A stretch of 64,000 nucleotides of DNA from an uncultured archaeon (GCA_964442255.1 CAYTYC010000004.1:1416-65415), one strand, 5' to 3'. Numbered from the stretch's first letter, positions 18,987-64,000 are shown. Notes: generated by a model not told the origin, from the sequence alone. Numbers and translations are program-made.

Positions 18987-19026
18987 TTATCTAAAACGTT
19001 TTCCCCCTTTTTAATCTTTTTCTTTT

Positions 19027-21471
19027 TCACCCGAATGCCCCCAGCGTTTGTTGCTTGCCGCCCTGCACCAAATCCTCTTCACTTACGCCCAGTTCACGGA
19101 TAATTTTAATGACGGCGGGAAAAACCTGGTGCTCGATGTAATAGTCCGCGTCATAGTTTCCTTCCTGCACGAACTCCGCCAGTTCAGCGCGGTCGGAAAT
19201 GCTTTTCCCTGAACGCGTCACAATGTATTCAATTATCGTGCCAACCCCTATTCTTTTTCCGCGCTTAATCGCCTTTTTTGCCGCGGCAATGTGCGGGCCG
19301 ATTGACTCATACGATTTAATGGATTTTTTTACCGTTGAAATAATCACCAAATCCTTTTTCTGCACTTTCCCTTCCTTTAAGTCTTTCACCGCTTTTCTCA
19401 CGACCTGAACTGCCTTTTCCGGCTTTCCTTCCTCCAAAACAGCCTGCAAAACCCTGCGCTGCGTGTCTTTTGCAATCCTTGCCCAGTCCCTCCGCACGTA
19501 CTCAAAGCCCACTATGCTTAAATTTCCCCTGAAGTCAATCAACGCGTACCTTTTTTTTGCCGCCCCTCCCTCTCGCCTGGTTACAAACAGCCCTCTTTTG
19601 TATATTCCCTCAAACTCGAGTTCCATTACTCCGGGAAGCCCGGAATTCACTTTTTCCGCAAACTCCAGAACGTCCGCCTTGGTTTTTCCTTTTGGTAACC
19701 CCAGGAATGCGCTGTCCGTGTCGTTGTATAAAAGCCTGAATCCCGCTTTCTCTGCTTTGTGCCCGATGTCCTTCACATAGTGCCGGCTCCACGCCGTCAC
19801 AGACCTCGCGGACTCCAGACTGTACCACCTGCTCCGAGGGTATCCCAGATAACCGTAAAAGGAGTTCAAAAGTATTTTGAGCGCCTGCTGGCGGGCGGAA
19901 AGCGCCTCAAATTCTTCTGAATCTTTTCCGAATTTTTTCATTTCTTTTTTGATTTTTTTCCTGTTTTCCAAAAGCTGTTCAAGGATTGCCGGAATAAAGC
20001 CTTTTTTTTTGGTGCAGAAGTAATCCCCGTCTGGCGCAAGGTTTTTTTTGTTTCCCCTGCAGCAATCGCAGTTCAGTGTTTCCGGGGAAACGTTGTGGGA
20101 AATCATTATGCTTGGGTGAAGGGAACGAAAATCCAATACGGCGATGTTTTCATGCAGCCCGGGCTCCGGGCTTTTCACAAACCCGCCTTTAAAGGACTGC
20201 ATCATTCTTTTTTTCACTTCCCCTTCATGCGGCCTGTTGGGGAGAAGGGTTTTTGTCTGGAAGCATTTGTCCATTAAAAGGAATTCCACCAGAAATCCCG
20301 CGGAGCCGCGGGAAACGTCAAACAGCGTTTGCTTCACCAGCTTGCTTAATTCCACGGCAACAGGCAAAAACCGGTTTCCCAGCCTGTAGGTTTGTTCCGC
20401 GTCCTCCAAATTGTATTCCGCCACTTTTTCCAGCCCTTTTCCTGAATCCCATGATTCCGTGATTTGTGCAGCGGTTATTTTCTCTTTTTTTTCCCCGTAA
20501 ATTTGTTCAACCACCGACTCCAAATCAAATTTAACCAGACTCACTATTCCAAAGCGCACAAAAAGCCTGAGCAATTGGTAGACGTCCAGGTGCTGCATTC
20601 CCACAACCATTACCGCTGAAGCAAATCCGTGCTTTTTTGCCTTTAATCCCGACCCTTCCACGCCAAAATCGATTTCCGCTTTCAGCACGCTTGCCCTTTC
20701 CCTTAAGTAAGGCAGGTCAAACAAGTCGCCGTTGTATGTCATCATGATGTCGGTTTTTTTTTCCCTTATTTCTTCCACAAGCCTTTCAATCAGTTTTGAT
20801 TCGCTTTCCACCAATTCAACGTGTTTTGTTTCCGCTTTTTTGTTTGCGGTGAAAACCTTTTTTTCTTTTCCTGAAACAAACGCCGCCATCAGGATTGCGT
20901 CTTTTTTCGGGTTGCTGAAGCTTTCCCCCGAATAGGTTTCCAAATCAAACGCCGAACTAACCGGCGCAATTCCCGTTTTTTTTTCAATTCGCTTTATTTC
21001 CTGAACCTCTTTTTCTTTTCCTTCCCTGAACTCCACTTCCACTTCCCCCAACGGCTCCAGTCCCTTGTCTATTAGGTATCTGCGGGTGAACACGATGTCG
21101 TGTTCCCTTTTTTCCATTACCCCTGAAATTTTGGTTATTTCTTCCCTTGCTTTCACCAAATCCGAGGTGTTTTTGAAGTAAATTCGCGCGGCGTTTTCCC
21201 GGTATTCTTCCGCTTTTTCCGCTTTTATTGCCTTGCTTTTTTCTTCCCCGAACTCTTTTTCGAGGATTTTTTTTTTCAGTTCCCCGAAACTTCCCTCAAA
21301 TACGGCGTAAAAGTAGGGGTGAAAGTTTTTTTCAATAAAGGACTCCATCCCGGAACGCGTTTTAATGAAAAGCCGGATGCAGGAATTCTTTTCTTTCCCT
21401 GTTTCCGTGGCCAAATCGACGAGTATTCCCTGAATCCGTTTCCCGGGCATAGATATATTTTTAATAGTCAA
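19027..21471 (-). CDS. polB: Family B DNA polymerase with a 3'-5' exonuclease domain
   Basis: Exo I FDLETY, motif A DFRSLHPSIM, motif B KILLNSFYGYLGY, motif C YNDTDS; 814 aa. Confidence 0.85.
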   Translation of the reverse strand: MTIKNISMPGKRIQGILVDLATETGKEKNSCIRLFIKTRSGMESFIEKNFHPYFYAVFEGSFGELKKKILEKEFGEEKSKAIKAEKAEEYRENAARIYFKNTSDLVKAREEITKISGVMEKREHDIVFTRRYLIDKGLEPLGEVEVEFREGKEKEVQEIKRIEKKTGIAPVSSAFDLETYSGESFSNPKKDAILMAAFVSGKEKKVFTANKKAETKHVELVESESKLIERLVEEIREKKTDIMMTYNGDLFDLPYLRERASVLKAEIDFGVEGSGLKAKKHGFASAVMVVGMQHLDVYQLLRLFVRFGIVSLVKFDLESVVEQIYGEKKEKITAAQITESWDSGKGLEKVAEYNLEDAEQTYRLGNRFLPVAVELSKLVKQTLFDVSRGSAGFLVEFLLMDKCFQTKTLLPNRPHEGEVKKRMMQSFKGGFVKSPEPGLHENIAVLDFRSLHPSIMISHNVSPETLNCDCCRGNKKNLAPDGDYFCTKKKGFIPAILEQLLENRKKIKKEMKKFGKDSEEFEALSARQQALKILLNSFYGYLGYPRSRWYSLESARSVTAWSRHYVKDIGHKAEKAGFRLLYNDTDSAFLGLPKGKTKADVLEFAEKVNSGLPGVMELEFEGIYKRGLFVTRREGGAAKKRYALIDFRGNLSIVGFEYVRRDWARIAKDTQRRVLQAVLEEGKPEKAVQVVRKAVKDLKEGKVQKKDLVIISTVKKSIKSYESIGPHIAAAKKAIKRGKRIGVGTIIEYIVTRSGKSISDRAELAEFVQEGNYDADYYIEHQVFPAVIKIIRELGVSEEDLVQGGKQQTLGAFG

Positions 21472-21959: not shown

Positions 21960-22466
21960 CTATTTTTTCCTTAAAACAATTAAAATCCCTGCAACCACTA
22001 AAACCAGGGCAATTGCGCTTATTTCCGGAACGGGCTGCCCCTGCTTCCCGACCGTAAAGCGGGTTTTCATTTTGTTGTTTTCTTTTTCTGTTTCAGCAGG
22101 AACAACAAGGGCTGTTGCTTCCGCGTATGCCGTGTAGTCCTTCCAGTCCTCAAGCCCTGCGCCTGAAAGGTCGAATGCTGTTGTGAATGTGAATTTGTTT
22201 CCCGGGCTTATAATCCTTGATGTGCTGTATACTGCAGTTCCCGGGTCTTTTTCCAGCCAAAACCCCACCGTCACATCAGTGGAGGTTATGCGCAGGTTTT
22301 TCACGGTTGCCTTGAATGTCATTGATCCTTCTTTGTCCACCACAATTGGAACAGCCTCAAATTTAACCATTTCAACGTATTCCTTCGGCGCAGATGCGGA
22401 ACCCGCCGCTGCCGCAAAAAACAGAAGGAAAATAAAACACAAGGCATATGCGGTTTTCATTCGCAT
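21960..22466 (-). CDS. Second small secreted CARDB/Ig-like surface protein with the same C-terminal PEI-x-AI plus TM plus RKK tail
   Basis: Signal peptide MKTAYALCFIFLLFFAAAAGSASA, a ..MTFKATVKNLRITS.. domain, and C-terminus ..PVPEISAIALVLVVAGILIVLRKK. Confidence 0.6.
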   Translation of the reverse strand: MRMKTAYALCFIFLLFFAAAAGSASAPKEYVEMVKFEAVPIVVDKEGSMTFKATVKNLRITSTDVTVGFWLEKDPGTAVYSTSRIISPGNKFTFTTAFDLSGAGLEDWKDYTAYAEATALVVPAETEKENNKMKTRFTVGKQGQPVPEISAIALVLVVAGILIVLRKK

Positions 22467-49443: not shown

Positions 49444-51318
49444 TTAATTTGGGTTTTCGTTGGGTGAACAGCCTCCCGGGCCCATATCTCCTATGTTTGC
49501 AGTTTCAAATAGGGAATAACAGGTCCACCCTTGGTTCGCATTGCATGCGGCTGTCGGGTTGTCTTTTGCGTCTTTGTCTAATGCGCAGGTGCCTGTATCC
49601 ACCCTTGCATAATAGTTTGGGTTGAATGGCTCAAATGTGTCCTTAAGCCTTATGTTGTATGCTACCCCTGTTTCGGCTTTATTTTTGTTGACAATATATT
49701 TTGGGTTTTTTTCCACAAACCTGAGGTTAACGGTTATCCTGTCCAGCTCTTCGCAGAATGCCTTCGGCTGATTTGTGAACCCTGTGCACTTAAATTCCGT
49801 TATATTTGGGTGGGTTATTTTGTCGTCTTCAGTGAGGAAAACCCCGACATCCTTATTGTAGGGGGTCATCGGACAGCCTGCATTTGTTTTGCCGTAGGGG
49901 TAATTTATGTTAAGGTAGTTTCCTTGCGTGGAGGGGGCCTGGGCTAAACTTATTTCAGAAGTGCTGACACTGTTTCCAGCCTGCTTAATTACTTTTGAGG
50001 GGGTTTGGTCAGTGGAAATGCTTATGCCGTAAAGAGGGCAGTTTTCCAGATATTCGTTCACGCCTGCTGCAAGTATGTCCCCCCCATTTATTTCCGTTCC
50101 GTTTCTTCCAATTAAAATATATCCGTCATCCTTGTCCGCGTTAAGGTATTCTCCCGTGTTATAATTTTCCACCGCAAGGTTGCAAAGCCTTCGCACAACC
50201 ATTTGTTTGATTGCATCCTCGGTAAGCATTGTGTCTGGCTCAAGGTTTCCTTGCACTTGGCTGAAAGACGCCTTGTCGCCTGGAAAGTAATAAAGGAAAA
50301 AATTCCCCACAATATCGCACATTCCAAGCGCTTTTAGTTCCTGGGTGCATGTTATGCCTGCTTGCATTATCTCTTCTGAGGGCGTGGTGGCAAACCTTTG
50401 GTCTCCCGGGCAGTATGCTCCGCTGCCTATTTCCTTTTCACTTGAGCTCAGGTAAGGGTGTTCGCGCCACCTGCAGCTGTCTATATCGCACAAGCCTAAA
50501 CGCATTTCCTCAAGTTCATTGTGAATGCGCGGGGAAAAAATTCCGTAGTTTTGTTTCCAAAGCGTGCCGGTTTCCCTGTTGTGCTCTATTGCCAGCGCCC
50601 TTGCCTCCGCAAACGCCTTGAATATTCTTACAGGCACGTAGATGCGCAGGTTTGTTCTCGGCATTATCGGCTCTTCTATCACCCGGTTTGTGCGAGTGTT
50701 TGTTACCTTTATTTTTGGGAACGCGTAATAGTCTTCAGCGCTCAGGTTTCTGGGATTCAGGTTAATGTAAAAGGTCCCAATGCATTTTTTGGGGTCGCCG
50801 TCTTCGCATCCCACGACCTCAATGAAGCTTTCTTTTGATTTGAGCATTTTATTCAATACTTCTTGAACTTTTCCCCTTTCCGCCTGGGTTGTTCCGGTAA
50901 GCTCTATCTGGAAAACCCCCACCTGCCTTTTGTACTGGTATCCTTTCACCAGCTCTTGGCTGAGAAAATATGTTAACGCCTGGGTGCTTTCATCTTTTTC
51001 GTTTTTCAGGCCAAAAAAAAAGGTTCTCGTGAACTGTTCCACCAATTCATCCCATGTGAGTTCCTGGAACGCAAAGCTTGCCCCGTTTGTGCTGAGCCAG
51101 TCCTCTATTTCAAACCTGACCTGGTAGTTGAAGAGCTGGATTGCGTCCGCCCTTGTCAAGTCCACGATTGCCTGCATTTCGCTTTGCTCTTCAATGTCTG
51201 AAATCAGCGCAAGCTTGTCTGCCTCCGCTTTCACCATGCTTTGCACAACGACAACACTCAAAACAATCAGCACAAAAGCCACCAATGCGGTGAACAAGGT
51301 GAAGGCTTTTTCTTTCAT
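49444..51318 (-). CDS. Large (624 aa) pilin-like protein with an archaeal class III (prepilin) signal peptide; Cys-rich globular body
   Basis: N-terminus MKEKA|FTLFTALVAFVLIVLSVVVV: a K-A at -2/-1 followed by a ~20-aa hydrophobic stretch, as in PibD/FlaK substrates. At least 8 Cys pairs. Embedded between giants 3 and 4. Confidence 0.6.
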   Translation of the reverse strand: MKEKAFTLFTALVAFVLIVLSVVVVQSMVKAEADKLALISDIEEQSEMQAIVDLTRADAIQLFNYQVRFEIEDWLSTNGASFAFQELTWDELVEQFTRTFFFGLKNEKDESTQALTYFLSQELVKGYQYKRQVGVFQIELTGTTQAERGKVQEVLNKMLKSKESFIEVVGCEDGDPKKCIGTFYINLNPRNLSAEDYYAFPKIKVTNTRTNRVIEEPIMPRTNLRIYVPVRIFKAFAEARALAIEHNRETGTLWKQNYGIFSPRIHNELEEMRLGLCDIDSCRWREHPYLSSSEKEIGSGAYCPGDQRFATTPSEEIMQAGITCTQELKALGMCDIVGNFFLYYFPGDKASFSQVQGNLEPDTMLTEDAIKQMVVRRLCNLAVENYNTGEYLNADKDDGYILIGRNGTEINGGDILAAGVNEYLENCPLYGISISTDQTPSKVIKQAGNSVSTSEISLAQAPSTQGNYLNINYPYGKTNAGCPMTPYNKDVGVFLTEDDKITHPNITEFKCTGFTNQPKAFCEELDRITVNLRFVEKNPKYIVNKNKAETGVAYNIRLKDTFEPFNPNYYARVDTGTCALDKDAKDNPTAACNANQGWTCYSLFETANIGDMGPGGCSPNENPN

Positions 51319-51333: not shown

Positions 51334-54300
51334 CTAAGAGACTGCGCCTTCAATTGATTTGCCCTCGTTTTTGGCAATGCTGCCCATTTTGCTTAACACT
51401 GTTGTGGAGTATTCTATTGCGGCGTTTTTGATGATTTTGCATTTTTCTATTGCCCCTGTGCCCCCGTGGTATGCCCCTATCGCCAATGCAAGGGGGTCGT
51501 CGCAGCCCTTTATGTCATCTTGCTGCAGCAGGTGCTTCACAATATCTGTTCCGACTTCAATGTTTACGGTCTCATCAAACCACAATTCTTTTGGAATTGC
51601 CTTGCCTTTTCCTTTGTAGTTTACCCTTGCAGGAAATGTCTTAACTCCCGGAACTTCAATTATCATTGTGCCTGTGTCACGGTAGCCGTAAGTGTCTTCC
51701 CCGTCTTTTGCGTACTTTTTGACTGAAGGCAGGCTTGTGTCGTTGAACCAGTAAGGCATTATCTGCATTAACCCCGTTGCCCCTGTTTCCGTGTTTACCG
51801 CAAACCTGTTTCCGCTGCTTTCGGTTTCAATAATGCTTTTAATCAAGTCCTCGCTTACTCCCGCGGCCTTTGACGCGCTTTTGGTTTTCGCATCCTGGCT
51901 TGAGGTTGTCCTGTTTATTTCCATTTCCTTTGCTTCAAATTCGTTCCCGCACTTGTCCAGCCTGTTGCTTGTGCTTTGGATTTCGTCACTGCTTGTCACC
52001 AGCCAGAACTGCAGGCACTTGTCTTTTCCTTCCAGATGCCTTACCCCGTAAGTGAAGTTTTTCTGGAACTCGAATTCTTTGGCTGTAAGCTCAACCGGCA
52101 CTCCGTTTATGGTTTGCAGCCCGGTTGGTTCGCAGTATCCTCCCGGGCTTTGCACTCCTTCCGCGCCCCAATACCATTTGAATGCCTCGTATCCCGCGGC
52201 TTCTCCCGCCGCCAGGCACCCGAATCCGCGGATGAATCTTGAAAGGTTTGGGTGGTTTGCCCAGAGCCTTCTCCACCTGCTCACTTCCGCGGCTTCTCCC
52301 CGCACAATCCATTTCTTGCTTTTTCCGACCTTTTTTGCTACGTCTTCAAGCCCGTCTGCCGCTGTTGTGTAGTTCCTGTTTCCAACCTGGTCCGTGACTG
52401 TTTTCATGGACTTCCTGATGCTTTTTTCCCCGTCCATGTTTGTGTGGTCCAAAATTTCCTTGAGCTCGCTTGCCTCCCTGTTCAGGTTGCTTATCACCGC
52501 GTTCCTTGCGTCATCCACTGCAACCGTTCCAACCAAGTCCCCTTCCTTCAGCAAGCCTTTTTTTACCAGGTCGTCTACAACCCCTTGGTGGGCTCTTGAA
52601 GCGTTTTTAAGCCTTCCCGCTTCGTCCACCAGGTTGTCGTACTGGGTTTGCATTTGGGGGCTGATTGCCTGCCTCCCCCTCCCTTGGGTTAAGTTATCCA
52701 TCTGTGTTTTTAGGGCTGCTTCCTGTTTTTCAAGGGATTCAAGGCCTATTCCTGTGTTGTCAATCAGGGTGAATTTTCCCCCCGCATCCGCTGTTATATT
52801 CATGTACTGTCTTCCGGTTACCGGGTCGGTGAAACCGCCAAGCTTGGCGTTAATCCCTGACGCCACTTTTGCCCCGCCCTGCAGGCTTTCAAGCCTGCCT
52901 TTGATTGCGTCTTTGGCAAACTCTGACGGCGCCAGAACCTGGTCAACGCCAGGGCGAATTGTTTTCCATGCCTGCCTTGTGCCCCCTGTGGCCAGGCTGG
53001 TTGAAACCATGTCTTCAATGATTTCTTTTCCCGTGTCATCCAAATTTCCCACCAAAAAGTCAGGCAGCCAGGAGTTCCCTCCCTCGGCTTTAACCGCTTC
53101 ATCAAGTATGAGCTTTTCCTCCCCTTTAACGAAGTTAACCAAATCCTTTATCTTGCCCCACGTGAAGTCCACGATTTTGTCAAAGCTCAAGTCAACGTTC
53201 AAGTATTCTTTAATCAGGCCTACCGCTACAGGCGGCCCGCAGGTGAGCAGCAGGCAGTCCACAACCGCGCCCGGAATAAACCCCAGCTTTGTAATTACGG
53301 CGCACCCTCCGCAGCCCACAAAGCATCCTGCACCCCATGCGGCTATGGACGTCACCCTTTTGCTGCTCTCCGCCTTAATGAGTTCGCTTTTCGGGTCAGT
53401 TAATTTGTTTTTCCTTAACTGCGAGTACACGTCAGCCAAGTTTACCTTGTCGTCCCCGCCGTCCCACACAAGTGTCGCGTAATAAGGCTCTTCTCCCACA
53501 GGAGTCTTGTATGCTTCCTCCAAAAACTCTAATGGAGTCAAACCGCACAGCATTAAGTCTATTTCCCTGAATTCTTCCATTGAATAAGGTCCATGCAGGT
53601 CCTCTGCCTTCAATTTAATGCTTTTTTCGGTTGCCTCCTGGAAGTCCGCCCCTCCCCTGATGCACAACTGGAAGTGATAATAGTAGCGCTTGCTTGCCTT
53701 GTCAAACTTTGCCAAATTAACCGTAAAATCGCGGTCTGTTTCAGTCAGCCTGAATGCAGGCTTTTCGCCTTTCCTTTCATATTCCCAGACAATTTTTTCC
53801 CCTGTTTTGGCTTCCTCGCCTTCCTTCGGCGCCTCTGTTTTTTCCGCAGTTTTTGCAGTTGTCTTAACCTGTTTTGCGCTTGCATCCCACACTTCAATGT
53901 ACTCCAGCCCAGGAATTTTCGCGCTGTCTTCATCAAACACCAAGTCAAATTCCCCTGAGGAAAGGTTTGACAGCACTCCATTAACGCAGGTTTCCTGCAT
54001 TGAAACCTGCATGCTTCCCGGAACCTCCAAACGCGGAACAAATTCTTCAACCCTTTCTGCGCTGCTTACAACAAAAAAGCTTTCATCCCTTGAAATGCAC
54101 GCATCACCCAGCTTTGAATTCCATAGGTTTCCCAGAATTCTTGCGGTTTCCTCTATCAGCTTGTCTTCCCCGCCTTCAACGCTTTCCGAGGCTTCAACTG
54201 ATTTCCTGCTTACCGTGACATACACTTTTTTCGGGTTTTCAGCCGAAAAACCCGGCTTCACTTCAATCTTCATCAGCCCGTTGAAGGGCACTTCCCCCAA

Positions 54301-57300
54301 CTCCAGTTCAACCGTGTTTCTGCTTCCCCCCCCGCCGAGCCGGCCCTCGCTTTTTCCGAAAAGCTTTTCCGCAAACTTTTCCTCAAATTTTTTGGTTGAA
54401 GAATCTTTTCCGTCAACCATTGTCAGCCAGCTTTCGTATGCGGACTCTGAATTGTATTTTTTGTCCAAAGGCAAAAAGTTCGGGGCATTCTGCGCAACGC
54501 TCTTGCATTCAGGGGTTTCATCGGCGTCAACCAGCCTGAACACGACAACAATTGATTCGGTGTCCAGCCTGTCTCCTTCAACCCCCACCGCGCCTGTTGT
54601 CGTCAGCTTGTATCTTCCGCATCCCGCCAAATCCCCGGGAATGTAAATCCTGCTCAAAAGCCCGATTCCTGCAACCCCAAAATCGCCTTCCCCGTACCTT
54701 ACATCAAAGTTTTCAAACTCGCTTGACTTTAAATCGTCGATTTCTTTTTTCAGCATTTCCCTGCTCAAATTGTCGTGCGAAAGGAAAACCTCCAGGCTGT
54801 CTGCCTGAATGTTCATTGACTCAAACGTGCAGTAGCCCTGCCTTGGGTCGCAGCCCTGAACATTTAATGTGGTGTTTGCGAGTTCGGTTACCCTTCTCTT
54901 TGCCTGCACTATCTTGTCTTTTGCCTTCTTTGCGATGTAACCCGCCATTCCCTGCGCGTCACAGTATCCTTCATGGCAGTCTGTTGAAAGCTTGGGGAAG
55001 CTTATTTTTTTTGTTTCAGAGTCCCGGTCCTCGCATATTGGCACCTCTATTTCAGGCATTGCCCTGCATTTTCCGCCGGAACAGCTTGTCGCGCTTTCCC
55101 CCACCTTCAATGAAATGTTCACGGGCTCTGATTTAATGAGTTCGCGTGTCACCTGCCCTACTCCCAGAACGGAAACAGGCCTGCTTACGTCAATGCTTTC
55201 TGAAGGGTAAACAGTTAATTCGAAATCGTCCCTGCCTGTCTGGGGCGGCAGCACTTCCCCGTCCGGGTAAATTTCAATGTAATTGTTTCCAATGTACTTG
55301 GGCTCCATTTCCCCTATCACAACGGGTTCCTGGCAAAAGTTTTTGATGCTAACAAAGCGGGTGATTGCCTCAAACGACTTTTTTGTGTCTGTCTCAAAAT
55401 TCAATGGCTCCCCGGGAAGGGTTTGAAGGGAGAGGCAGTGCCAGTCCGACACATGGAAGTAAACCGGAACGCTCCAAAGGTTTGTGTAGTGCCTGCCCTC
55501 AATGTTTCCGTTTATAACAAGGTTTCCGAGATGGGTTGAGCTTTTTTCAGTGTTTGCTGTTGCCACAACGTATGCGGGGGGAATGGATTGCCCTTTTTTC
55601 AGCAAAGGAAACTCGTTCCTTGGCTCTATTTTGACGTCCACTCCCGGAATGTGCTGCTCCAATGCCATTGTAATCTCTGAAACATCCGCGTTTCCGCGGT
55701 TTGAAATGAACAGCATTGCCCTGCCTATCCCTGTTTTTTGCCTTTGGCTTTGAGTAATCCATATGTGCAGGTTGTCGGGCACAAACAACGCAATCTTTGG
55801 GTTCCATAAAATGATTTTCAGGGGAATGCTTTTACTTATCTGCGGGCTTTTAAAGAACACATCATAGTTGTACTGCTGCTGGAGGTCAAACATCGTGGGG
55901 AAAGTGCTCACCAGCTCCAAACTGTACTGGTGGGGTTTTCCGTCCGCCTCCAAACGGAAGGTTCCAGCGTAAACCTCAACCCCCGGCGCCTCTTTTCCTT
56001 TTGGAAGGGCTTCCGGGGAAAAATTCAATGGAACCCCGCAATTGTTTTTCATCAGGATGTCCAAAGTTTTCCGGTTTCCCTCCGCCCCGACCAGGTAAGC
56101 CTGGAGTTCGCTTGAGTCAAACTCCAAACAGCTTTCCTTGAGCCTTTGATTGTAGTTAACCTTTACCCTTGTTTTTGCGGCTACAACGTATTCCCCGTTC
56201 ACGAGCCCCGTGAATTCAACGTCTGCCTCGCCGTGCACTATTTTTTCCTCGTTTCCCGTGTATTCCGCGGTGAACCCAATTTTTCCTGTTTCCCTTGGGC
56301 CTAATTCCGCCGGGGGAAGCGCGCTTAAAATGAGTTCATCCGGCCAGTTTTTCGCGGGAACCACTTCAGCCGCAATCCCGCTCACCGGAAGGGTTAAGGT
56401 GTTCCTTATTGTTTCCTCAATTCTCACAACCTTTTCCCCGAAAGGCATGTTCAACAAAATTTTTTCCTCAATCTTTAATCCTTCTTTTGCCCCGACCATG
56501 AACCCTTTTTCCACGGGCCTGAATCCCGGTGCCTCAATTCTTGCGGCGTATTTTCCGGGTTCCAGTGAATTCTTGAACCTGTACACCCCGTCCCTTCCGT
56601 TTCCGGTTGAGCCGTCCCCAAGCATTTCCGCAGCGGTTTCCCCGTCAGCCGAAATTATCCGGATTTTCGCGTTTTCCACCGGCCTTCCAAGGGAATCCTT
56701 AAGCGTTATTTTGATTTCTTCTCCCGCATTCACGAAATCCTCCAGCTCAATGTCCAGTTCCGCTTCCCTGAACACAGCGAAAAACAATTCATCTTCAATG
56801 CCTTCGTTTCCTAATTTGGCTTCGCTTCTGATGAAGGCCTCCCCTTCCTTTATTCCCTTGAAATAGAATCTCGCGGTTTTAGGGGTTCCCCGTGAAAGCG
56901 AAATGTTGTTTGCGGTGAGCGCCTGCAAAGGGTTTTCGTTGTCCGCAAAATTGGATGCGCCTGAAAGGCTGTAGGAAGTGAAAACAACTTTTGGCACGGA
57001 GTCAGATGTTGAAACCCTCAAATTGACTGAAAGGTTTTCCGCTGCCACCATTTCCGCTTCAAGCGCGTACACTTCGCCCAAGCCCGCGGAAAACTCTTTT
57101 TCCCCGAACCTTCCGCCTTCTTTTGTCAAAAACATGTGGGTTATGCACAGTTTTTCCTTGCACAACGGCTCGGACTCAAACACGCTTACTTTTTCTGAAA
57201 TTGTTTCCGCATACAACGCGGATTTTTCCCTGCTTACTTTTTCGCTTCCCAGCACCTGGTCTTCGGGAGTCCGGGCAGTTAGGCCGTTGAATTCCGCCCA

Positions 57301-59529
57301 CGTGCGGTAGTTTACTTCAAAGCTCTCTTCCCCAAAGCCTTCCCTTGCCTTCACCCTTGCCCTCACAATTTTTGTTCCGCCCGGGTTTTCAAAGTAAAGC
57401 TCCAGAAACTTGCTGAATTCCCCTGCTTCTCCCTCGTTTCTCCTGTCAATGGACTCGTTTCCGGGCGAAGGAAAGGGCTGGTATGTCTGGCCGAAGAAAA
57501 AGTTGTCCGCAACCGCGTCAAATCCCGTCACTCCAACCGTGTCGGATTCAATGTAAGGGACCGTGTCGTTTCCCACGCGCACATGCATTCCGCCTTTGTA
57601 TTCGCCTTCAATCCACTGCGTTTCAAATTCAAGGTAATAGTCTTTTCCTTTCACTATTCCTTTCACTTCGTTTCCGTCCTCGTCCAGTATCCTTGCAAGC
57701 CTTATCTTCGGCTTTAATTCAAGGTGCTGTTCTTTGTTCAATTCCATTTCCAGTTCCCTGTTTTTCCCTATCTGCCTTAATTCCGAGTGCGTTGTCCCGT
57801 CGGGCAGCGAAACCTCCACCACCGCCTCATTGTAGCCTATTGAGTCAAACACAACTGACCCCTCTTCGATTGGGCCGTCAAACAATACTGTGCCGTCTTT
57901 TGCGCTGACCAAAACGTTTCCGTCTTCAATCACATTCCCGTTTTCGTCCTTCAACACCAGCGTTTTCACGGTGTCAGGCACCTTTAACTGGATTATCAGC
58001 TCATTCAGTTCCGGTTCAATTGTTTTCTGCGCCTCCCCTTTTTCCAGTTTCCAGAACCCTTTTACCCTGATGTTTTTTCCTGCTTCCATGGTGGTTTCAT
58101 GGCTTCCGTCCAGCCCTGTGCTCGCAATTCCCAGGCCCAAGGGAAACTCTTCCTGTTCTTCCCCTTTTAGTTCATAGAACTGCAGGGTTGCATTCACCGC
58201 GGGCTTTTGCCCGGAGGTTATGGCGTGCACAATCAGTTCAGCCGAATTTTCAATTGTCGCCTTTTTCAATTCAATGTCCGCGCTTTCCTGCGCCAACGGA
58301 ATCACTTCAATCACTTTTGGAAGGTAGCCTTCCTTCACGGCGCCGATGAAGTATTTTTCGTTGACGTTCAGTCCCCCGAATTCCACGAAGCCCCCGAAGC
58401 CGGTTTCCTTTGTTTCCAGCACCTTGTTTTCCAAGCCGTAAAGAGTCACTTCCGCGGAGTGCAAAAGGGTTTTTGTGTCTTCGTCCATTACTGCGACAGT
58501 AAATTGTTCTCCGCCTTTTTCCAGGAAAATTTCTTTCACTGTTTCCTCTCCGCGCAATGTAACAAACTCTTCCTCTGAATCCTCGTATCTCACATACCCG
58601 TCCTTTTCAACACTTACCATTACCACTGTGCCTTTTTTCAGGTAACTTGAATAGATTCCGTCGTCGTCTTCCTCCGATTCATCCAGTTTCTTGAAGCTTT
58701 CCCCGTCAAAAATTCTGATGTTTGCGCCTTCCACCAGGCTTTTTGTTTCCGAGTCAAACACTTTTACTATCAAATTGGTTTCGCCCTGGAGTTCCGCGGG
58801 TTTCGGCGCAAGGGAAATTGTCCTTAACTCCGTTGACTCAAAGCGGATTTTCTGGCTTAAATCCTCATACGAATCGGCGGTGACCTCAACCAGTATTTCC
58901 TCTTTTTTAGGCAGGTTCACCAGTTCCGCGATTCCGTCTCCTCCGCTTACCGCGTTCCTTACCTCGGCCTTCCAGCTTGCCGTCACCAAAACGCCTTCAA
59001 TTGCCGTGTCTTTTTCCGAGTCAATGAACCGCAGCTTTCCGTTGATGTAGCCGGTTTCCATTCTTTCAAGGAAAAGGTTTGCGGTTACGTTCACCGAATC
59101 CAGGTCAAGCAGTTCCGAGTCTTTTTTAAATCCCTCTTTTTCCGCTTCCACGGTTACAGTGCTTCCGATTGGAATTCCTTCAAGCAGTATCGCTCCGCCG
59201 TTTGACCCGGGTTCAGGGCCGTAAATGGTTTTCCCGGTTTCGTTTTTCACGGAAACCATCGCCCCGCTAAGCCCTTTTCCTTCGTCGTCCACGATGTTCA
59301 TCGCGATTGAAACGTTTGCCGCCGCAAAATTAAAGTAAAAAAACCCAAGCAAAATGAACAGGATTATCGCAATCAATGCGATGAACACAGGGAAAAAGGG
59401 AATTCCGCGGTTCTCGAACAGGTCAACGATTTTGTATACCGGCAATCCCTTGTCGTCCAGGAAATCCATTCCCGCATAGAATTTGTCCTCTATTTTTGCG
59501 TACACTTCCGCAAGCTTGCCTGAAATCAA
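51334..59529 (-). CDS. Giant surface protein 4 (2731 aa): the same N-module plus TM, CarboxypepD_reg-like repeats, coiled region, and a C-terminal family-1 lytic transglycosylase (SLT/GH23) domain; TTG start
   Basis: N-terminus (TTG)ISGKLAEVYAKIEDKFYAGMDFLDDKGLPVYKIVDLFENRGIPFFPVF plus TM. C-terminus ..ETESSGNRFAVNTETGATGLMQIMPYW...AIGAYHGGTG matches the SLT catalytic motif (ES..N..A.S..GA.GLMQIMP...AYNAG). Confidence 0.85.
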   Translation of the reverse strand: MISGKLAEVYAKIEDKFYAGMDFLDDKGLPVYKIVDLFENRGIPFFPVFIALIAIILFILLGFFYFNFAAANVSIAMNIVDDEGKGLSGAMVSVKNETGKTIYGPEPGSNGGAILLEGIPIGSTVTVEAEKEGFKKDSELLDLDSVNVTANLFLERMETGYINGKLRFIDSEKDTAIEGVLVTASWKAEVRNAVSGGDGIAELVNLPKKEEILVEVTADSYEDLSQKIRFESTELRTISLAPKPAELQGETNLIVKVFDSETKSLVEGANIRIFDGESFKKLDESEEDDDGIYSSYLKKGTVVMVSVEKDGYVRYEDSEEEFVTLRGEETVKEIFLEKGGEQFTVAVMDEDTKTLLHSAEVTLYGLENKVLETKETGFGGFVEFGGLNVNEKYFIGAVKEGYLPKVIEVIPLAQESADIELKKATIENSAELIVHAITSGQKPAVNATLQFYELKGEEQEEFPLGLGIASTGLDGSHETTMEAGKNIRVKGFWKLEKGEAQKTIEPELNELIIQLKVPDTVKTLVLKDENGNVIEDGNVLVSAKDGTVLFDGPIEEGSVVFDSIGYNEAVVEVSLPDGTTHSELRQIGKNRELEMELNKEQHLELKPKIRLARILDEDGNEVKGIVKGKDYYLEFETQWIEGEYKGGMHVRVGNDTVPYIESDTVGVTGFDAVADNFFFGQTYQPFPSPGNESIDRRNEGEAGEFSKFLELYFENPGGTKIVRARVKAREGFGEESFEVNYRTWAEFNGLTARTPEDQVLGSEKVSREKSALYAETISEKVSVFESEPLCKEKLCITHMFLTKEGGRFGEKEFSAGLGEVYALEAEMVAAENLSVNLRVSTSDSVPKVVFTSYSLSGASNFADNENPLQALTANNISLSRGTPKTARFYFKGIKEGEAFIRSEAKLGNEGIEDELFFAVFREAELDIELEDFVNAGEEIKITLKDSLGRPVENAKIRIISADGETAAEMLGDGSTGNGRDGVYRFKNSLEPGKYAARIEAPGFRPVEKGFMVGAKEGLKIEEKILLNMPFGEKVVRIEETIRNTLTLPVSGIAAEVVPAKNWPDELILSALPPAELGPRETGKIGFTAEYTGNEEKIVHGEADVEFTGLVNGEYVVAAKTRVKVNYNQRLKESCLEFDSSELQAYLVGAEGNRKTLDILMKNNCGVPLNFSPEALPKGKEAPGVEVYAGTFRLEADGKPHQYSLELVSTFPTMFDLQQQYNYDVFFKSPQISKSIPLKIILWNPKIALFVPDNLHIWITQSQRQKTGIGRAMLFISNRGNADVSEITMALEQHIPGVDVKIEPRNEFPLLKKGQSIPPAYVVATANTEKSSTHLGNLVINGNIEGRHYTNLWSVPVYFHVSDWHCLSLQTLPGEPLNFETDTKKSFEAITRFVSIKNFCQEPVVIGEMEPKYIGNNYIEIYPDGEVLPPQTGRDDFELTVYPSESIDVSRPVSVLGVGQVTRELIKSEPVNISLKVGESATSCSGGKCRAMPEIEVPICEDRDSETKKISFPKLSTDCHEGYCDAQGMAGYIAKKAKDKIVQAKRRVTELANTTLNVQGCDPRQGYCTFESMNIQADSLEVFLSHDNLSREMLKKEIDDLKSSEFENFDVRYGEGDFGVAGIGLLSRIYIPGDLAGCGRYKLTTTGAVGVEGDRLDTESIVVVFRLVDADETPECKSVAQNAPNFLPLDKKYNSESAYESWLTMVDGKDSSTKKFEEKFAEKLFGKSEGRLGGGGSRNTVELELGEVPFNGLMKIEVKPGFSAENPKKVYVTVSRKSVEASESVEGGEDKLIEETARILGNLWNSKLGDACISRDESFFVVSSAERVEEFVPRLEVPGSMQVSMQETCVNGVLSNLSSGEFDLVFDEDSAKIPGLEYIEVWDASAKQVKTTAKTAEKTEAPKEGEEAKTGEKIVWEYERKGEKPAFRLTETDRDFTVNLAKFDKASKRYYYHFQLCIRGGADFQEATEKSIKLKAEDLHGPYSMEEFREIDLMLCGLTPLEFLEEAYKTPVGEEPYYATLVWDGGDDKVNLADVYSQLRKNKLTDPKSELIKAESSKRVTSIAAWGAGCFVGCGGCAVITKLGFIPGAVVDCLLLTCGPPVAVGLIKEYLNVDLSFDKIVDFTWGKIKDLVNFVKGEEKLILDEAVKAEGGNSWLPDFLVGNLDDTGKEIIEDMVSTSLATGGTRQAWKTIRPGVDQVLAPSEFAKDAIKGRLESLQGGAKVASGINAKLGGFTDPVTGRQYMNITADAGGKFTLIDNTGIGLESLEKQEAALKTQMDNLTQGRGRQAISPQMQTQYDNLVDEAGRLKNASRAHQGVVDDLVKKGLLKEGDLVGTVAVDDARNAVISNLNREASELKEILDHTNMDGEKSIRKSMKTVTDQVGNRNYTTAADGLEDVAKKVGKSKKWIVRGEAAEVSRWRRLWANHPNLSRFIRGFGCLAAGEAAGYEAFKWYWGAEGVQSPGGYCEPTGLQTINGVPVELTAKEFEFQKNFTYGVRHLEGKDKCLQFWLVTSSDEIQSTSNRLDKCGNEFEAKEMEINRTTSSQDAKTKSASKAAGVSEDLIKSIIETESSGNRFAVNTETGATGLMQIMPYWFNDTSLPSVKKYAKDGEDTYGYRDTGTMIIEVPGVKTFPARVNYKGKGKAIPKELWFDETVNIEVGTDIVKHLLQQDDIKGCDDPLALAIGAYHGGTGAIEKCKIIKNAAIEYSTTVLSKMGSIAKNEGKSIEGAVS
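51337..51870 (-). other. SLT (soluble lytic transglycosylase, GH23) catalytic domain at the C-terminus of giant protein 4
   Basis: E-S catalytic dyad context ..IIETESSGNRF.., the GLMQIMP motif, and the downstream AYHGG motif. Confidence 0.75.
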
Positions 59530-59647: not shown

Positions 59648-59962
59648 TTAAATTGTAATGCCGCTTTTCAGGGCTTCGCTTACAATGGAAACCTGCCTGC
59701 TCAATTTTTTGAATTCTTCCGGGGTGTAGCAGAGGAAGTCAACCGGATAATCTAAACGCCAGTGCCTGTGCAGGCCTTCTGCTCTTCCGAATTTTTTTCT
59801 CTTAAAATAAGGGGAAACAATTATTAGGTCTACATCGCTGTCTTTGCGGTGCCTTTTCCCTGCCCTTGAACCAAATAAAATGACCCTTTCCACTTTCCTT
59901 TTTTCAGATACCTCTTTTTTGAATTTTTCTATCCCTTTGATTAAAGCTTCTCTTTCGCCCAT
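59648..59962 (-). CDS. Nucleotidyltransferase (MNT) antitoxin-like protein
   Basis: ILFGSRAGKRHRKDSDVDLIIV matches the minimal nucleotidyltransferase motif G[SG]..x9-13 D.D; 104 aa. Confidence 0.7.
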   Translation of the reverse strand: MGEREALIKGIEKFKKEVSEKRKVERVILFGSRAGKRHRKDSDVDLIIVSPYFKRKKFGRAEGLHRHWRLDYPVDFLCYTPEEFKKLSRQVSIVSEALKSGITI

Positions 59963-60294
59963 TTCAACACCTTTTCGGATTTTCTTATGGCTTCCTGCAC
60001 GCTTGTTTTTTCAAATTTGGCGTAAGTGTCCGGGTACCTTGTTTCAATGTAGAACGAGCTGATTTCATCGCAGATGTCCAGCAAATGTTTGGGGACTTCA
60101 ACTTTTTTCCCAAGGAAATAGAGGTCATGGGTTTTGAACAGTTTCCTGAATCTTTTGATGTACAAAGCCTTTAACGCTTTTTCAACTGCCTGCTGGCAGA
60201 AAAAAGCCGCGGCATCGAAAACATTTTCCCTGAAATTAATCTTTGCGGTATTCAAATCGTGCTCTGCTTTTTCCATCCATTCCTTTGGCTCCAT
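59941..60294 (-). CDS. HEPN-domain protein (toxin-like partner of the MNT gene)
   Basis: 117 aa, all-helical, with the ETRYPDTY motif in the HEPN R-x(4-6)-H position. Overlaps the MNT gene by 22 nt. Confidence 0.65.
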   Translation of the reverse strand: MEPKEWMEKAEHDLNTAKINFRENVFDAAAFFCQQAVEKALKALYIKRFRKLFKTHDLYFLGKKVEVPKHLLDICDEISSFYIETRYPDTYAKFEKTSVQEAIRKSEKVLKWAKEKL

Positions 60295-60339: not shown

Positions 60340-60915
60340 TTAAGCCTTTTGGCTTCCATTAATTCCGCGCCTGCGCTTGCGCGGCTTTTTAACCTTTTTC
60401 ACTCCGGCGGCAAGCCAGTACCATGCCCCATAAAACCCCGCAATAACAACAATCAGTGAAACCCTGAACAAAACATCGTGCGTGAAAACCGCTGTCTCAA
60501 CACTTGAATTAATTAAAATATTTATGCTCACAACAATCCTGGCCAAATTAAAAATGTTGACTCCAACAAACGCCGCAACAGCCCCGTACAGTTTTTTTCT
60601 CCATGAAATAAATGGAGTCGCAGCAATTGCGGAAACCAAAACAACCAACTCCAAAATTCCTGTGCACAATTCCCCTATTTCCACCTTAAAATCCCGGAAA
60701 TCAATCAGCACAGGCTCTGCCGCAGAGGCAATTGTGCCGTGCGCCCCAAACAAATTCATCAAAAAAATCACGGCTTGTGCAACCGCAAGCTCGCTCCACT
60801 CCAGCGGAACAACAAAATAGAAAATTCCGTACAGTACGGCAAAAACCGCCATGAGAAAAACCAAAAACTTTGCCCCGCGGAGCACTTCTTCTTTGCTGAA
60901 ATCCATTTTCACCAC
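60340..60915 (-). CDS. Small archaeosortase/exosortase-family membrane protein
   Basis: 191 aa with ~5 TM helices. Cys in a TM helix within EIGELCTGILEL (the C-[ST]-G motif), conserved Arg (NLARIV), and a basic C-terminal tail. Confidence 0.5.
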   Translation of the reverse strand: MVKMDFSKEEVLRGAKFLVFLMAVFAVLYGIFYFVVPLEWSELAVAQAVIFLMNLFGAHGTIASAAEPVLIDFRDFKVEIGELCTGILELVVLVSAIAATPFISWRKKLYGAVAAFVGVNIFNLARIVVSINILINSSVETAVFTHDVLFRVSLIVVIAGFYGAWYWLAAGVKKVKKPRKRRRGINGSQKA

Positions 60916-60934
60916 ATAATAACGCCTTAAGTGC

Positions 60935-61168
60935 TTATTTTTCTTTTTGCTTTTCCCTGAATTCCCTTAAAACCGGCAAAAATTTTTCGGCTCCTTTCCT
61001 TGTGAGCTCGTAATTCATTCCGTGCGCTGTGGGGTGCTTGTACAGGAGGCCTTCCCTTATGAAATCCTTCAAAACAAAGAAAGCATTTTTGCGCTTGTCT
61101 TTCGCGATTCCGGAAAGAAGGGGTTCCTTTTTTGAATGCCTTTTGCTGTAGTGTTCCGCGCAAGCCAA
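60935..61168 (-). CDS. PadR-like winged-helix transcriptional regulator (possibly frameshifted relative to the overlapping ORF 60927..61250)
   Basis: GLLYKHPTAHGMNYELTRKGAEKFL resembles the PadR recognition helix and wing. The overlapping alternative frame encodes a PadR-like N-terminus (EEFRKVVALAIVKKIG). Confidence 0.35.
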   Translation of the reverse strand: MACAEHYSKRHSKKEPLLSGIAKDKRKNAFFVLKDFIREGLLYKHPTAHGMNYELTRKGAEKFLPVLREFREKQKEK

Positions 61169-61328
61169 TTTTTTTGACTATGGCTAATGCCACAACTTTC
61201 CTGAACTCTTCCGAATCTTCCTTTTTCACAATTAACCTGCGAAAAGGCAAAGAAATAAGAAGGCTTCAATACTGCAATCAACGAAAAAACAATACAGTAT
61301 ATGCTCTAAAGTTATATTTTTAGGGTTT

Positions 61329-61667
61329 TTGGCTTTTGTCCTTTTCATGTATGCAACCCAAACCCTTAGCGCAGTCCAGGTGCTGCGCTTTAACGGGGAA
61401 AAAGCCGAGCTTGAGCTGCTTAAGGTTATTCACTCTTTTCCGGGCTTGAGCGTTTACTCCCTTTCCCAGAAAGCCTCCTGGACCTGCGGAAAAACCCAGC
61501 AGGCTGTGGAAAGGCTGCACAAAAAAGGTTTGGTGGAATTTGGGGAAACAGTTGAAAGTTCCCGTGTTCAGAAAAAGGTGTTTGAAACCCCTGCAACAAA
61601 GCTCATCAGCTTCCGGAAAAAAGAGCTTGAGCTCATGGAAAAATTCCTGAAAAGGAAAGCGGAATAA
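61329..61667 (+). CDS. Winged-helix DNA-binding protein (MarR/TrmB-like), hypothetical
   Basis: LELLKVIHSFPGLSVYSLSQKASWTCGKTQQAVERLHKKGLVEF fits a helix-turn-helix plus wing; 112 aa. Confidence 0.45.
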   Translation: MAFVLFMYATQTLSAVQVLRFNGEKAELELLKVIHSFPGLSVYSLSQKASWTCGKTQQAVERLHKKGLVEFGETVESSRVQKKVFETPATKLISFRKKELELMEKFLKRKAE

Positions 61668-61693
61668 TCTTTTATCGCACTTTCTGCCCGGCC

Positions 61694-62335
61694 TCACTCC
61701 GCCAGCTTATTTTTCAGCGCTTTTGTGGCACCAATGTATTTTTGGTATTCTATTGGGCCCATCAATCGGTGCATCTGAACCTCAAGCAAATCTGCATAGA
61801 ATTCTAATGTGCCGCTTACGGAACCGCCTTTTGACAGGCTTAAACTTTCTTTTTGTGTGTCCTCCAACTCCCTTATTGCCGTGTCCAAGCTTTTAATCTC
61901 TTTTTTTGTGTTTTCCACTCTGCCTCTTTGCGGAAGGCTTTTTTGGATTTGCCTCACTTCTTTGAGCAGCTTTGCCAAAGAAGAAACACTTACAGGCTGC
62001 CCCCTAGCAGTATCCAGCCTTATTTTGCCCGCTATCAGCCAAAGGTTCACCAGCTTCCCAAGCTTTCCTTTTGTTGAATTTGGAATCTTCAACCTACTAA
62101 TAATTTCATTAGAGAGAACTGCTTCATAATAAGCCAACTGGCTTGTTTTTTCTCCTTCACTCAAGGGCCTTTTTGTTGACACAATTTTTTTGGCTTCTTC
62201 CATGAGGCTTTGCATATCAATAGAGTCAACAATCCTTTTTGTTTCTCTTTTTATTTCCTCTTGAATTGCATTCCTTGTCTTGCTTGATATTTCTTTTCGC
62301 CTTGCTTTGGAAGGGCTTCTGCCTCTTGCTTTCAT
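61694..62335 (-). CDS. Hypothetical basic/coiled protein
   Basis: 213-aa ORF with an ATG start, divergent from the ATPase gene. Confidence 0.4.
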   Translation of the reverse strand: MKARGRSPSKARRKEISSKTRNAIQEEIKRETKRIVDSIDMQSLMEEAKKIVSTKRPLSEGEKTSQLAYYEAVLSNEIISRLKIPNSTKGKLGKLVNLWLIAGKIRLDTARGQPVSVSSLAKLLKEVRQIQKSLPQRGRVENTKKEIKSLDTAIRELEDTQKESLSLSKGGSVSGTLEFYADLLEVQMHRLMGPIEYQKYIGATKALKNKLAE

Positions 62336-62449
62336 GCAAACACATGTCCTTCAAGCCGCATAAAAGGCTTTCGCCCTGTTTTTGTTTCACGGTTTTTCCT
62401 TTACAGTAATGAATTAATATAACTTTCACCTATTTTTAATGGATTTTTC

Positions 62450-64000
62450 ATGAAGATTGGCGGATTCAGGGTAGGCGACTATGCAGTCAAGGAAGAAGGC
62501 GGAAAACGCCACCTGATTTTTGACTGCAGGGACTGCGTGTACGGGACTTCAATTGCCGATGATAAGGCGTGCAGGTTTCATGCAATAAAGGTTTTGGGCC
62601 GGGTTGAAGCAGACCTCCTCGTGCTTGCGGACGTCTATGAAAGGGTTTACGGCAAGGAGCAGACCTCTGAATTGATTGAACTGGGAAACCTTGCCGCAAA
62701 GTTTGAGCTTGAAACCCCTTGGAGTTATTCCCATTTGGGCTACGATATTGGGGACACGCAAAAGCATTTTCCGCAAAGGCATGACACAATTGTTTCCATT
62801 ACACAGGAGCTTGTCGGCTTTGACCCTGTGCTGGGGTACCTTTCCTGCCTCCGGGAAATCAAGAAAGAGAAACTGCTGTTTGAGCAGTCTTCAGGGGATT
62901 ACGCGGAAGCCACAAAAGCATACCTCACCACCCTGCTTGGAATAAAGAAGTCTTTTGAGGAAACTTCGCTGATTAAAAAAGTGAAAAACTGGCTGATTAA
63001 GTTAAAGGAAATCCCGGAAACAACCCAGCTTTACCACACCTTGTTTGAGGCGGAAATAAAGCCTTCCTTTATCGGCTCAAGGCTGATGTTTGAGAAAACC
63101 GAGTCGCTTGAGCTTTTGGACGAATACACCGTTAAAAAGGCAACCGTGCAGGTTTACGCGCACCCCAACAAAACGGAAAAGCTTTACTTCATTAATCCCC
63201 CTGAATATTCCCTTCCGCCCGAAAAATACTTTGTTTTAAGCAAAACCAAGGAGGTTGTCGCGGGCTACAAGCCGGGAAAAACTTCTTTAAGCCAGATAGC
63301 GAAAAGCAGGAAATACTTTGAAAGGGTTTATGAGGCAACAATCTCTGACATCGCGCAGGAAAACAGCATTTCCTTAAGCAAGGCGGAAGTAAGGGAGCTT
63401 GCCGGAATTGTCGCCCGCTACACGGTGGGATACGGAATCCTTGAAATCCTTTTAAGCGACAGAAAGCTGACAGACATTTACATGGATTCCCCGATCGGGC
63501 AAAAGCCATTGTATGTGGTTCACGCTGACTTCGGGCAATGCCAAAGCAACGTGCTTTACACTGAAACAGAAGCCGACGCCCTGGTTTCAAAGCTCAGGGC
63601 AATGAGCGGAAGGCCTTTTGACGAGGCCCACCCTGTTCTGGATTTTGACCTCCCAAACCTTGAAACAAGGGTTGCTGTCATTGGCGAACCCCTTTCCCCT
63701 GACGGGGTTGCATTCGCTTTCCGTTTGCATAAGGTAACCCCGTGGACTTTGCCGCAGTTCATTGACGTCAAATACCTTTCCCCGCTGGCTGCAGGCTTAA
63801 TGTCTTTTTTTGTGGACAACCAGGCAACCATGCTTGTGACAGGCTCCAGGGGTTCGGGAAAAACCTCCATGCTCGCTTCACTCATCCTTGAAATTCCCCA
63901 GAATTCCCGCATTCTGGTGCAGGAAGACACACTTGAGCTTCCCGTGAATTACATGAAGGAAATTGGCTTCAACATCCAGCGCCTTAAAACCAGGTCCCCT
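62450..64000 (+). CDS. FlaI/GspE/VirB11-family secretion ATPase (archaeal type IV filament assembly ATPase), 5' portion; it continues past the window end
   Basis: Translated by hand with no stop for 517 codons. Walker A is LVTGSRGSGKTSML and the Asp box is ILVQEDTLEL. The ORF is absent from the track only because it lacks a stop within the window. Confidence 0.75.
   Translation, partial: MKIGGFRVGDYAVKEEGGKRHLIFDCRDCVYGTSIADDKACRFHAIKVLGRVEADLLVLADVYERVYGKEQTSELIELGNLAAKFELETPWSYSHLGYDIGDTQKHFPQRHDTIVSITQELVGFDPVLGYLSCLREIKKEKLLFEQSSGDYAEATKAYLTTLLGIKKSFEETSLIKKVKNWLIKLKEIPETTQLYHTLFEAEIKPSFIGSRLMFEKTESLELLDEYTVKKATVQVYAHPNKTEKLYFINPPEYSLPPEKYFVLSKTKEVVAGYKPGKTSLSQIAKSRKYFERVYEATISDIAQENSISLSKAEVRELAGIVARYTVGYGILEILLSDRKLTDIYMDSPIGQKPLYVVHADFGQCQSNVLYTETEADALVSKLRAMSGRPFDEAHPVLDFDLPNLETRVAVIGEPLSPDGVAFAFRLHKVTPWTLPQFIDVKYLSPLAAGLMSFFVDNQATMLVTGSRGSGKTSMLASLILEIPQNSRILVQEDTLELPVNYMKEIGFNIQRLKTRSP

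Follow-up and report, generated by a model that had tools for sequence, protein, structure and literature searches.

Archaeal type IV pilus (T4P) loci were surveyed by Makarova, Koonin and Albers in 2016, in a work that makes no mention of the DPANN archaea (PMC4858521). DPANN T4P 'dark matter' islands are reported to keep FlaI and TadC together with pilins that are unrecognisable (PMC6393860), and T4P have been reported in Diapherotrites reference genomes (PMC8561730). Here we analyse a gene at positions 62450-64000 (plus strand) of a 64,000-nucleotide (nt) stretch from an uncultured archaeon (GCA_964442255.1, CAYTYC010000004.1:1416-65415), a stretch referred to below as the window. With a probability of roughly 0.8, we read it as the first gene of a T4P-like operon on an Iainarchaeum/Diapherotrites (DPANN) chromosome, comprising a FlaI/TadA-class ATPase, a FlaJ/TadC-class platform and class III pilins. 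An ATPase, a TadC-like platform and small class III proteins are what the loci of relatives have in common with the described archaeal loci and DPANN islands (PMC4858521; PMC6393860).

At the level of the single protein, the closest characterised ATPases are the archaeal GspE of Archaeoglobus fulgidus (afGspE), the archaellum motor FlaI/ArlI, and TadA/CpaF of Tad/Flp pili. As a gene call, a truncated secretion-superfamily ATPase is ordinary and known in kind, and it had been correctly spotted in an earlier note made from the DNA alone. What is distinctive is its lineage-specific architecture and its conserved neighbours.

The ATPase at the window edge

The gene, its domains and its motifs lie as follows.

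62450-64000, plus strand: 5' 517 codons (~68%) of a T2SSE-superfamily assembly ATPase gene, recognised by its open frame and a T2SSE score above the Pfam cut-off
62450-63058, plus strand: family-specific N-terminal domain, residues 1-203 (AlphaFold2 model, profile search)
63059-63769, plus strand: FlaI/GspE-like N-terminal region of the ATPase, residues ~204-440 (FlaI model, Foldseek, secondary structure)
63833-63874, plus strand: Walker A motif (P-loop) LVTGSRGSGKTSML, residues 462-475
63911-63940, plus strand: Asp box ILVQEDTLEL, residues 488-497

The open reading frame (ORF) begins at ATG 62450 and runs for 517 codons without a stop up to the window edge, a run for which we estimate a chance probability of ~1e-12 at ~46% GC. 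This ATG is taken as the true start because relatives open in the same way: MKIGGF... is shared by the window protein and more than 100 of them. The earlier note had described the same stop-free frame, its Walker A motif and its Asp box, all of which can be read directly in the translation. It had also remarked that the gene was missing from the ORF list, which is so because the list omits ORFs running off the window end. Within the Walker A motif, the P-loop GSRGSGKTS (residues 465-473) is invariant from G465 to S473 across the aligned relatives, and so is VQEDTLEL (residues 490-497) within the Asp box, which is uninterrupted in the window copy. In all aligned relatives, the Walker B motif (DSALVLGEVRS) and the His box (GTIHGDS) follow just past the position of the edge.

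Attempts at extending the contig did not get past the window edge. An exact look-up of the protein of 213 amino acids (aa) encoded next to the ATPase gave no match; a HEPN protein and a 624-aa protein from further upstream led only to Logan contigs of 3-4 kb (SRR7048218), none passing the window edge; and exact DNA scans of a metagenome collection with the last 27-66 nt of the window gave no match. The relatives, ~760 aa at full length, are therefore the only guide to the continuation of the window copy past 64000 and to the lack of an early stop, on which the earlier note's reading depended.

More than 120 full-length relatives (756-770 aa) found in a protein database search align to 100% of the fragment at 63-72% identity. 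Where named, they are a 'type II/IV secretion system ATPase subunit' from Candidatus (Ca.) Diapherotrites or Micrarchaeota, and one is called 'Flp pilus assembly complex ATPase component TadA' by one source. In a scan with one genome per species, at least 574 genomes held a relative, and the best 80 of them belong almost without exception to Ca. Iainarchaeum/Diapherotrites, with the complete AR10 genome and I. andersonii among them. Three contigs carrying the ATPase (L012, L013 and L017) are filed under metagenome-assembled genomes labelled 'Chloroflexi bacterium', 'Chloroflexota bacterium' and 'Candidatus Falkowbacteria bacterium', and one NCBI protein is labelled '[bacterium]'; these bacterial labels are probably binning errors rather than horizontal transfer. 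The window itself has a chromosomal, archaeal context, with a family B DNA polymerase (PolB), HisRS, TrkAH and tRNAs.

The branch of the superfamily to which the protein belongs was assessed with family models, sequence searches and predicted folds. The cut fragment scores 31 bits against the Pfam T2SSE model (PF00437; gathering cut-off 24.9), relatives carry precomputed PF00437 matches, and more distant proteins with the same N-terminal domain score 67-88 bits. The best NCBIfam models for the fragment are FlaI (NF058587, 94 bits, with an alignment that begins at residue 287) and TadA (TIGR03819, 93.6 bits). Full-length relatives reach 134-146 bits with the FlaI equivalog model (cut-off 550), 127-130 bits with the TadA/CpaF model (cut-off 373), and 65-77 bits with VirB11/TrbB models (45-77 including the fragment; cut-offs 250 for TIGR02788 and 305 for TIGR02782).

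For structural comparison the query was P0001, a full-length relative 72% identical to the fragment. Its best sequence match in the PDB is afGspE (2OAP/2OAQ; 3e-33, over residues 295-681 of P0001), followed by CpaF/TadA (8RJF, 9E24; 1.6e-26) and FlaI (1.5e-20), with PilT and VirB11 reaching only ~1e-8 (VirB11 4e-8). The AlphaFold2 model of P0001 has a mean predicted local distance difference test (pLDDT) score of 80.9 and shows a two-lobed fold of N-terminal and C-terminal domains (NTD-CTD), a property of this relative and not of the cut window copy. With Foldseek, the model matches 2OAP and the FlaI structures 4II7/4IHQ at E ~1e-27 and target template modelling (TM) scores of 0.72-0.74, with 520-585 columns aligned to 2OAP and 4II7. 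The best match is afGspE (E 2e-27, target TM 0.72), FlaI lies next to it (E ~4e-27, target TM <=0.74), and CpaF (1.6e-21, rounded 1e-21) and VirB11 (1e-12) are weaker. Because of these sequence and fold rankings, and of NCBIfam scores below their cut-offs, the window protein is best placed in the FlaI/archaeal-GspE/TadA clade, at a wide distance from VirB11, PilT and PilB, without being an equivalog of any curated family. The earlier assignment to the FlaI/GspE family of secretion ATPases agrees with both the T2SSE match and the closest structures.

The family differs in several respects from each of these three systems. It shares with afGspE the NTD-CTD architecture, Walker A, Asp box, Walker B and His box, but at ~22% identity, and the Iainarchaeum protein adds a 200-aa N-terminal domain and a C-terminal helical extension of ~85 aa. 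With FlaI/ArlI it shares the top NCBIfam model, the fold and a FlaJ/TadC-class platform partner; on the other hand, it falls far below the equivalog cut-off, has a different N-terminus, and in the related locus L002 has no archaellins or FlaF/G/H downstream. TadA/CpaF is the second-best match by sequence, although the Iainarchaeum platform is a single ~770-aa protein instead of TadB plus TadC, and the system lacks a secretin or other Tad outer-membrane parts, as expected in an archaeon.

The family as a whole exceeds FlaI or afGspE in length by ~250 aa. The N-terminal domain (residues 1-203) is strongly conserved, and when modelled alone by AlphaFold2 (pLDDT 89, predicted TM score 0.86) it shows a small beta/alpha module and, after this, a helical bundle. 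A Foldseek search of the PDB with this model gave no significant match (best E 0.47). A profile of the domain matched only 188 clusters among 1.84 billion representative proteins, always at the extreme N-terminus, and the six of six carriers scanned against Pfam were T2SSE ATPases. The domain contains a CxxC-x11-CxxH cluster (C26, C29, C41 and H44; 62525-62581, plus strand), which is invariant in 10 relatives, at least 90% conserved in 59, and absent in a few family members. The motif suggests a possible metal site, and since a few members do without it, a structural rather than catalytic one. At the other end, the ~85-aa extension is seen in the AlphaFold2 model of P0001. For both modules, regulation or docking is the most likely function.

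In carriers that exceed 1,200 aa, this ATPase is split by one or two LAGLIDADG inteins, located within the Asp box (QED|T, corresponding to 63926/63927 in the window) or after Walker B (GEVRS|), as seen in P0123, P0134, P0168, P0163 and P0003. The window copy is intein-free at the first site; the second lies beyond the edge.

Partner genes in relatives

The nature of the machine is best judged from what follows the ATPase gene in relatives. On three long related contigs, it is followed by a membrane protein of 763-780 aa and then by seven small genes. In 72 of 84 related loci, a large (~770-aa) membrane protein is encoded downstream on the strand of the ATPase gene; roughly ten hydrophobic segments can be counted in it, and of 33 family members 30 match Pfam T2SSF (PF00482) at E<=0.01, with a best E of 2.4e-6. 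The FlaJ/TadC-like gene that the earlier note advised looking for next to the ATPase is thus present in relatives.

The small downstream proteins begin with class III-type N-termini, for example NSRGQEFAGFKLLIGAI, NEKGQAYSAFKLLIAAII and NKGQESAPFELLIAVII. Between three and seven class III-like ORFs, in which [KR]GQ precedes a hydrophobic helix, occur downstream in 30 of the 41 loci with enough flank, these N-termini being called by a simple motif count alone. Ten downstream proteins of one locus (L002) gave no Pfam or NCBIfam match to archaellin or archaellum accessory families. At the end of the pilin array in the same locus lies, on the opposite strand (18788-20521, minus strand), a conserved protein with homologues of 250-750 aa in 27 loci, composed of a transmembrane region at the N-terminus, a long Lys/Glu-rich middle and, at the C-terminus, a double zinc-ribbon or RING-like motif.

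On the model of FlaI, archaeal GspE and CpaF, from which hexamer formation, ATPase activity and a filament product are drawn, the ~760-aa protein would assemble into a hexamer at the cytoplasmic side of the membrane, bound there to the polytopic platform specified by the adjacent gene. ATP hydrolysis would then act via the platform, lifting peptidase-processed pilins from the membrane into a growing surface filament. The most likely role of such a filament is adhesion to surfaces or partner cells, because conserved neighbours of the locus, described below, are giant adhesin-like proteins whose ends are cell-wall-degrading. The earlier note had proposed an assembly or secretion motor for surface structures; an assembly ATPase is supported by its partners in relatives, and its type is refined to a pilus rather than an archaellum.

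Several points weigh against a pilus operon. The platform scores 22.2 bits with T2SSF against a cut-off of 25.2, most members of its family fall below the gathering score, and a profile of the family found no match among PDB sequences. The pilin-like genes match no curated pilin family above threshold. A scan of ORFs of at least 150 aa in the 64-kb window for the prepilin peptidase motif G-x-G/A-D-x-K/R (A24: PibD/FlaK/EppA) came back empty; prepilin peptidases are often encoded elsewhere in the genome. Since Walker B and the His box lie beyond the edge, the window copy may also carry an intein, a frameshift or an early stop. Finally, no filament observation for this lineage was found in the literature searched, most subscription journals lying outside that search.

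Divergent neighbours and competing explanations

Upstream of the ATPase gene, and divergent to it, lies a second set of recurrent genes.

62336-62449, no strand: divergent intergenic region upstream of the ATPase gene (sequence read)
60340-60915, minus strand: exosortase/archaeosortase-family membrane protein, 191 aa (TIGR04178, 38.4 bits against a cut-off of 23)
51334-59529, minus strand: giant N-anchored surface protein, 2731 aa, with Ig-like/CarboxypepD_reg repeats and a C-terminal SLT lytic transglycosylase domain
49444-51318, minus strand: 624-aa protein directly after the giant, with a class III (pilin-like) N-terminus MKEKAFTLFTALVAFVLIV and a weak ComGF pilin N-terminal match
26596-49336, minus strand: three more paralogous giants of 2453, 2434 and 2620 aa with the same N-terminal motif, transmembrane anchor and Ig-like repeats

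In the intergenic region, the AT-rich TTAATATA at 62414-62421, ~30 nt 5' of ATG 62450, is a possible archaeal TATA box serving a leaderless or short-leader mRNA, a promoter role suggested by sequence and position. A sigma-70 promoter and terminator scan of the region used bacterial models, which are uninformative for an archaeon.

The exosortase-like gene recurs upstream of and divergent to the ATPase within 4 kb in 52 of 69 loci. A Cys, an N-x-x-R motif and a His are invariant among 59 homologues of its product, which reaches no named subfamily cut-off (XrtH 29 against 86; ArtD 23.6 against 125). No exosortase-type C-terminal sorting signal was found on the giants or the pilin-like proteins. 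About 40 kb away in the window, two small paralogous secreted proteins (18507-18986 and 21960-22466, both on the minus strand) end in VPEI[GS]AI, a transmembrane helix and RKK. From this tripartite signal, like that of PGF-/PEF-CTERM, they are candidate substrates of the exosortase-like protein; the flanks (+/-10 kb) of 84 related loci hold no sorting signal of the VPEI[GS]AI type.

The giants are equally recurrent. In 35 of 44 loci, an open frame of 1000 aa or more is found upstream in divergent orientation, the giant N-terminus is found upstream in 36 of 54, and four more have co-directional giants downstream. As many as 42 loci share the N-terminal 400 aa, whereas no locus shares the C-terminal end. 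In the window giants and in those of L002, L003, L005 and others, the conserved part comprises a cytoplasmic motif (...YxxLEDKFYxxLDFLxxKGIPVY...KGIPAFP) followed by a transmembrane anchor. The C-terminal hydrolase of relatives' giants is Amidase_2 or Glucosaminidase in place of SLT. With a conserved N-terminus and varying hydrolase ends, the giants resemble polymorphic 'payload' proteins. The start of the nearest giant is 2.9 kb from the ATPase, in keeping with the earlier note's 3 kb to the start of an island, and the protein with a class III signal that the note placed nearby is the 624-aa protein, homologues of which lie just beyond the giant in the six loci whose flank extends that far.

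Large lytic-transglycosylase proteins have been described in Pacearchaeota and Woesearchaeota and reported as specific to both (Castelle et al., 2021; PMC8204110). The 2731-aa giant of the window is like them in its SLT domain and in size (up to ~3000 aa); it differs from them in that theirs were described with no link to a pilus locus, whereas the window's giant occurs in an Iainarchaeum-type genome beside a T4P-like operon. Large DPANN transglycosylase proteins linked to a pilus locus were not found in the literature searched.

Given these neighbours, the machine could resemble a type II secretion system, in which a short pseudopilus would export or position the giants with their peptidoglycan-degrading ends, and the giants' cytoplasmic N-terminal motif would be recognised either by the platform or by the N-terminal domain that the ATPase carries. 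The frequency of giants beside the ATPase gene, the conservation of this motif as the C-terminal ends vary, the large class III signal protein after the giant in six loci, and the restriction of the N-terminal domain to this ATPase family all fit such a deployment role. However, the signal-anchor N-terminus of the giants would normally use Sec or YidC, a secretin-like or other export component is not evident, and the closest relative (L001) has no giant within 10 kb upstream. Furthermore, conserved gene order alone is no proof of functional coupling. We consider secretion or deployment as the primary role improbable.

A FlaI/ArlI motor driving archaellum-based swimming is far less probable still. 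The FlaI equivalog heads the NCBIfam models, and FlaI structures rank with the best in the fold search, but the score lies at about a quarter of the NF058587 cut-off, archaeal GspE and CpaF outscore FlaI by sequence, and the protein exceeds FlaI in length by 250 aa and differs from it at the N-terminus. The ten L002 downstream proteins match no archaellin and none of the FlaF/G/H/CDE/X families. On the missed cut-off, the sequence and fold comparisons and the lack of any archaellum accessory match downstream in L002, this assignment was rejected.

We give as little credence to a competence (Com-like) pilus for DNA uptake, an idea that would fit a nucleotide-scavenging reduced genome and that draws on weak ComGA-, ComGC- and ComGF-type matches of the ATPase and two class III proteins. 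These matches are far below their cut-offs and reflect only a generic pilin N-terminus and P-loop, and the loci showed no gene resembling ComEC or ComEA.

Last, an ATPase of VirB11/TrbB type, serving a conjugative type IV secretion system carried by a mobile element, which the earlier note had named as the alternative to be excluded and to which only weak family matches (45-77 bits) and nearby HEPN/MNT toxin-antitoxin genes point, is effectively refuted by sequence (4e-8 for VirB11 against 3e-33 for afGspE), by fold (1e-12 against 1e-27, with GspE, FlaI and TadA all far ahead), by family models (all VirB11/TrbB cut-offs missed), by partners that are a T2SSF platform and pilins and not VirB4, VirD4 or a relaxase, and by the stable synteny of a lineage-wide gene in a chromosomal context with PolB, HisRS and tRNAs.

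Other genes of the window are particular to this organism or unrelated to the operon. The HEPN (105 bits) and MNT genes overlap and form a pair at 59648-60294 (minus strand), between the giant and the exosortase-like gene; at that position the pair gave two matches only, the window and its Logan twin contig, and is organism-specific. Likewise organism-specific is an insertion at 60927-62335, between the exosortase-like gene and the ATPase, whose genes are absent from 84 related loci: they encode a 77-aa basic protein (minus strand), a MarR-like winged-helix protein (61329-61667, plus strand; weak matches only) and the 213-aa Lys-rich, coiled-coil-like protein (minus strand). A cysteine-rich repeat protein of 151 aa with ~25 Cys, without a Pfam match, is encoded at 357-812 (minus strand). 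A 92-nt tRNA at 6642-6733 (minus strand) was found by Rfam (60.6 bits) and missed by ARAGORN, and probably holds an intron, as is common in archaea. At 10090-11121 (plus strand), a free-standing LAGLIDADG-type homing-endonuclease-like ORF (PF14528, 30.9 bits) overlaps at its 3' end the opposite-strand tRNA-Ser at 11084-11172 (minus strand).

Implications for Iainarchaeum-type archaea

The shared linkage suggests a joint role at the cell surface for the pilus-like machine, the sortase-like enzyme and the giants. The literature searched yielded no account of the 760-aa architecture, of the N-terminal domain or of the exosortase/giant linkage. A more far-reaching idea, which we put forward tentatively and hold to be rather unlikely, is that the ATPase drives a cell-contact or attack module common to the whole Iainarchaeum lineage, in which the pilus-like machine, with its unique N-terminal domain, would work with the archaeosortase-like enzyme, the 600-aa class III protein and the N-anchored giants, and would serve to reach and breach bacterial walls. 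The C-terminal ends of the giants would then be swappable peptidoglycan hydrolases, SLT here and amidase or glucosaminidase in relatives. If this were true, these archaea would interact with bacterial hosts or prey, much as members of the bacterial candidate phyla radiation (CPR) use type IV pili for episymbiosis; type IV pilus-like host attachment has been shown for CPR Saccharibacteria (PMC9894109).

Type IV pilus-like machines are a leading candidate for host attachment of ultra-small symbionts, and the contact apparatus is not known in DPANN outside a few cultivated lineages. Archaea of the Iainarchaeum type have retained a pilus motor of a distinctive kind, with an additional N-terminal domain, and most relatives examined have it linked to an archaeosortase-like gene and to giants whose ends degrade bacterial walls. 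For this lineage, of unsettled free-living or symbiotic lifestyle, the locus is a concrete, testable candidate for host or prey interaction.

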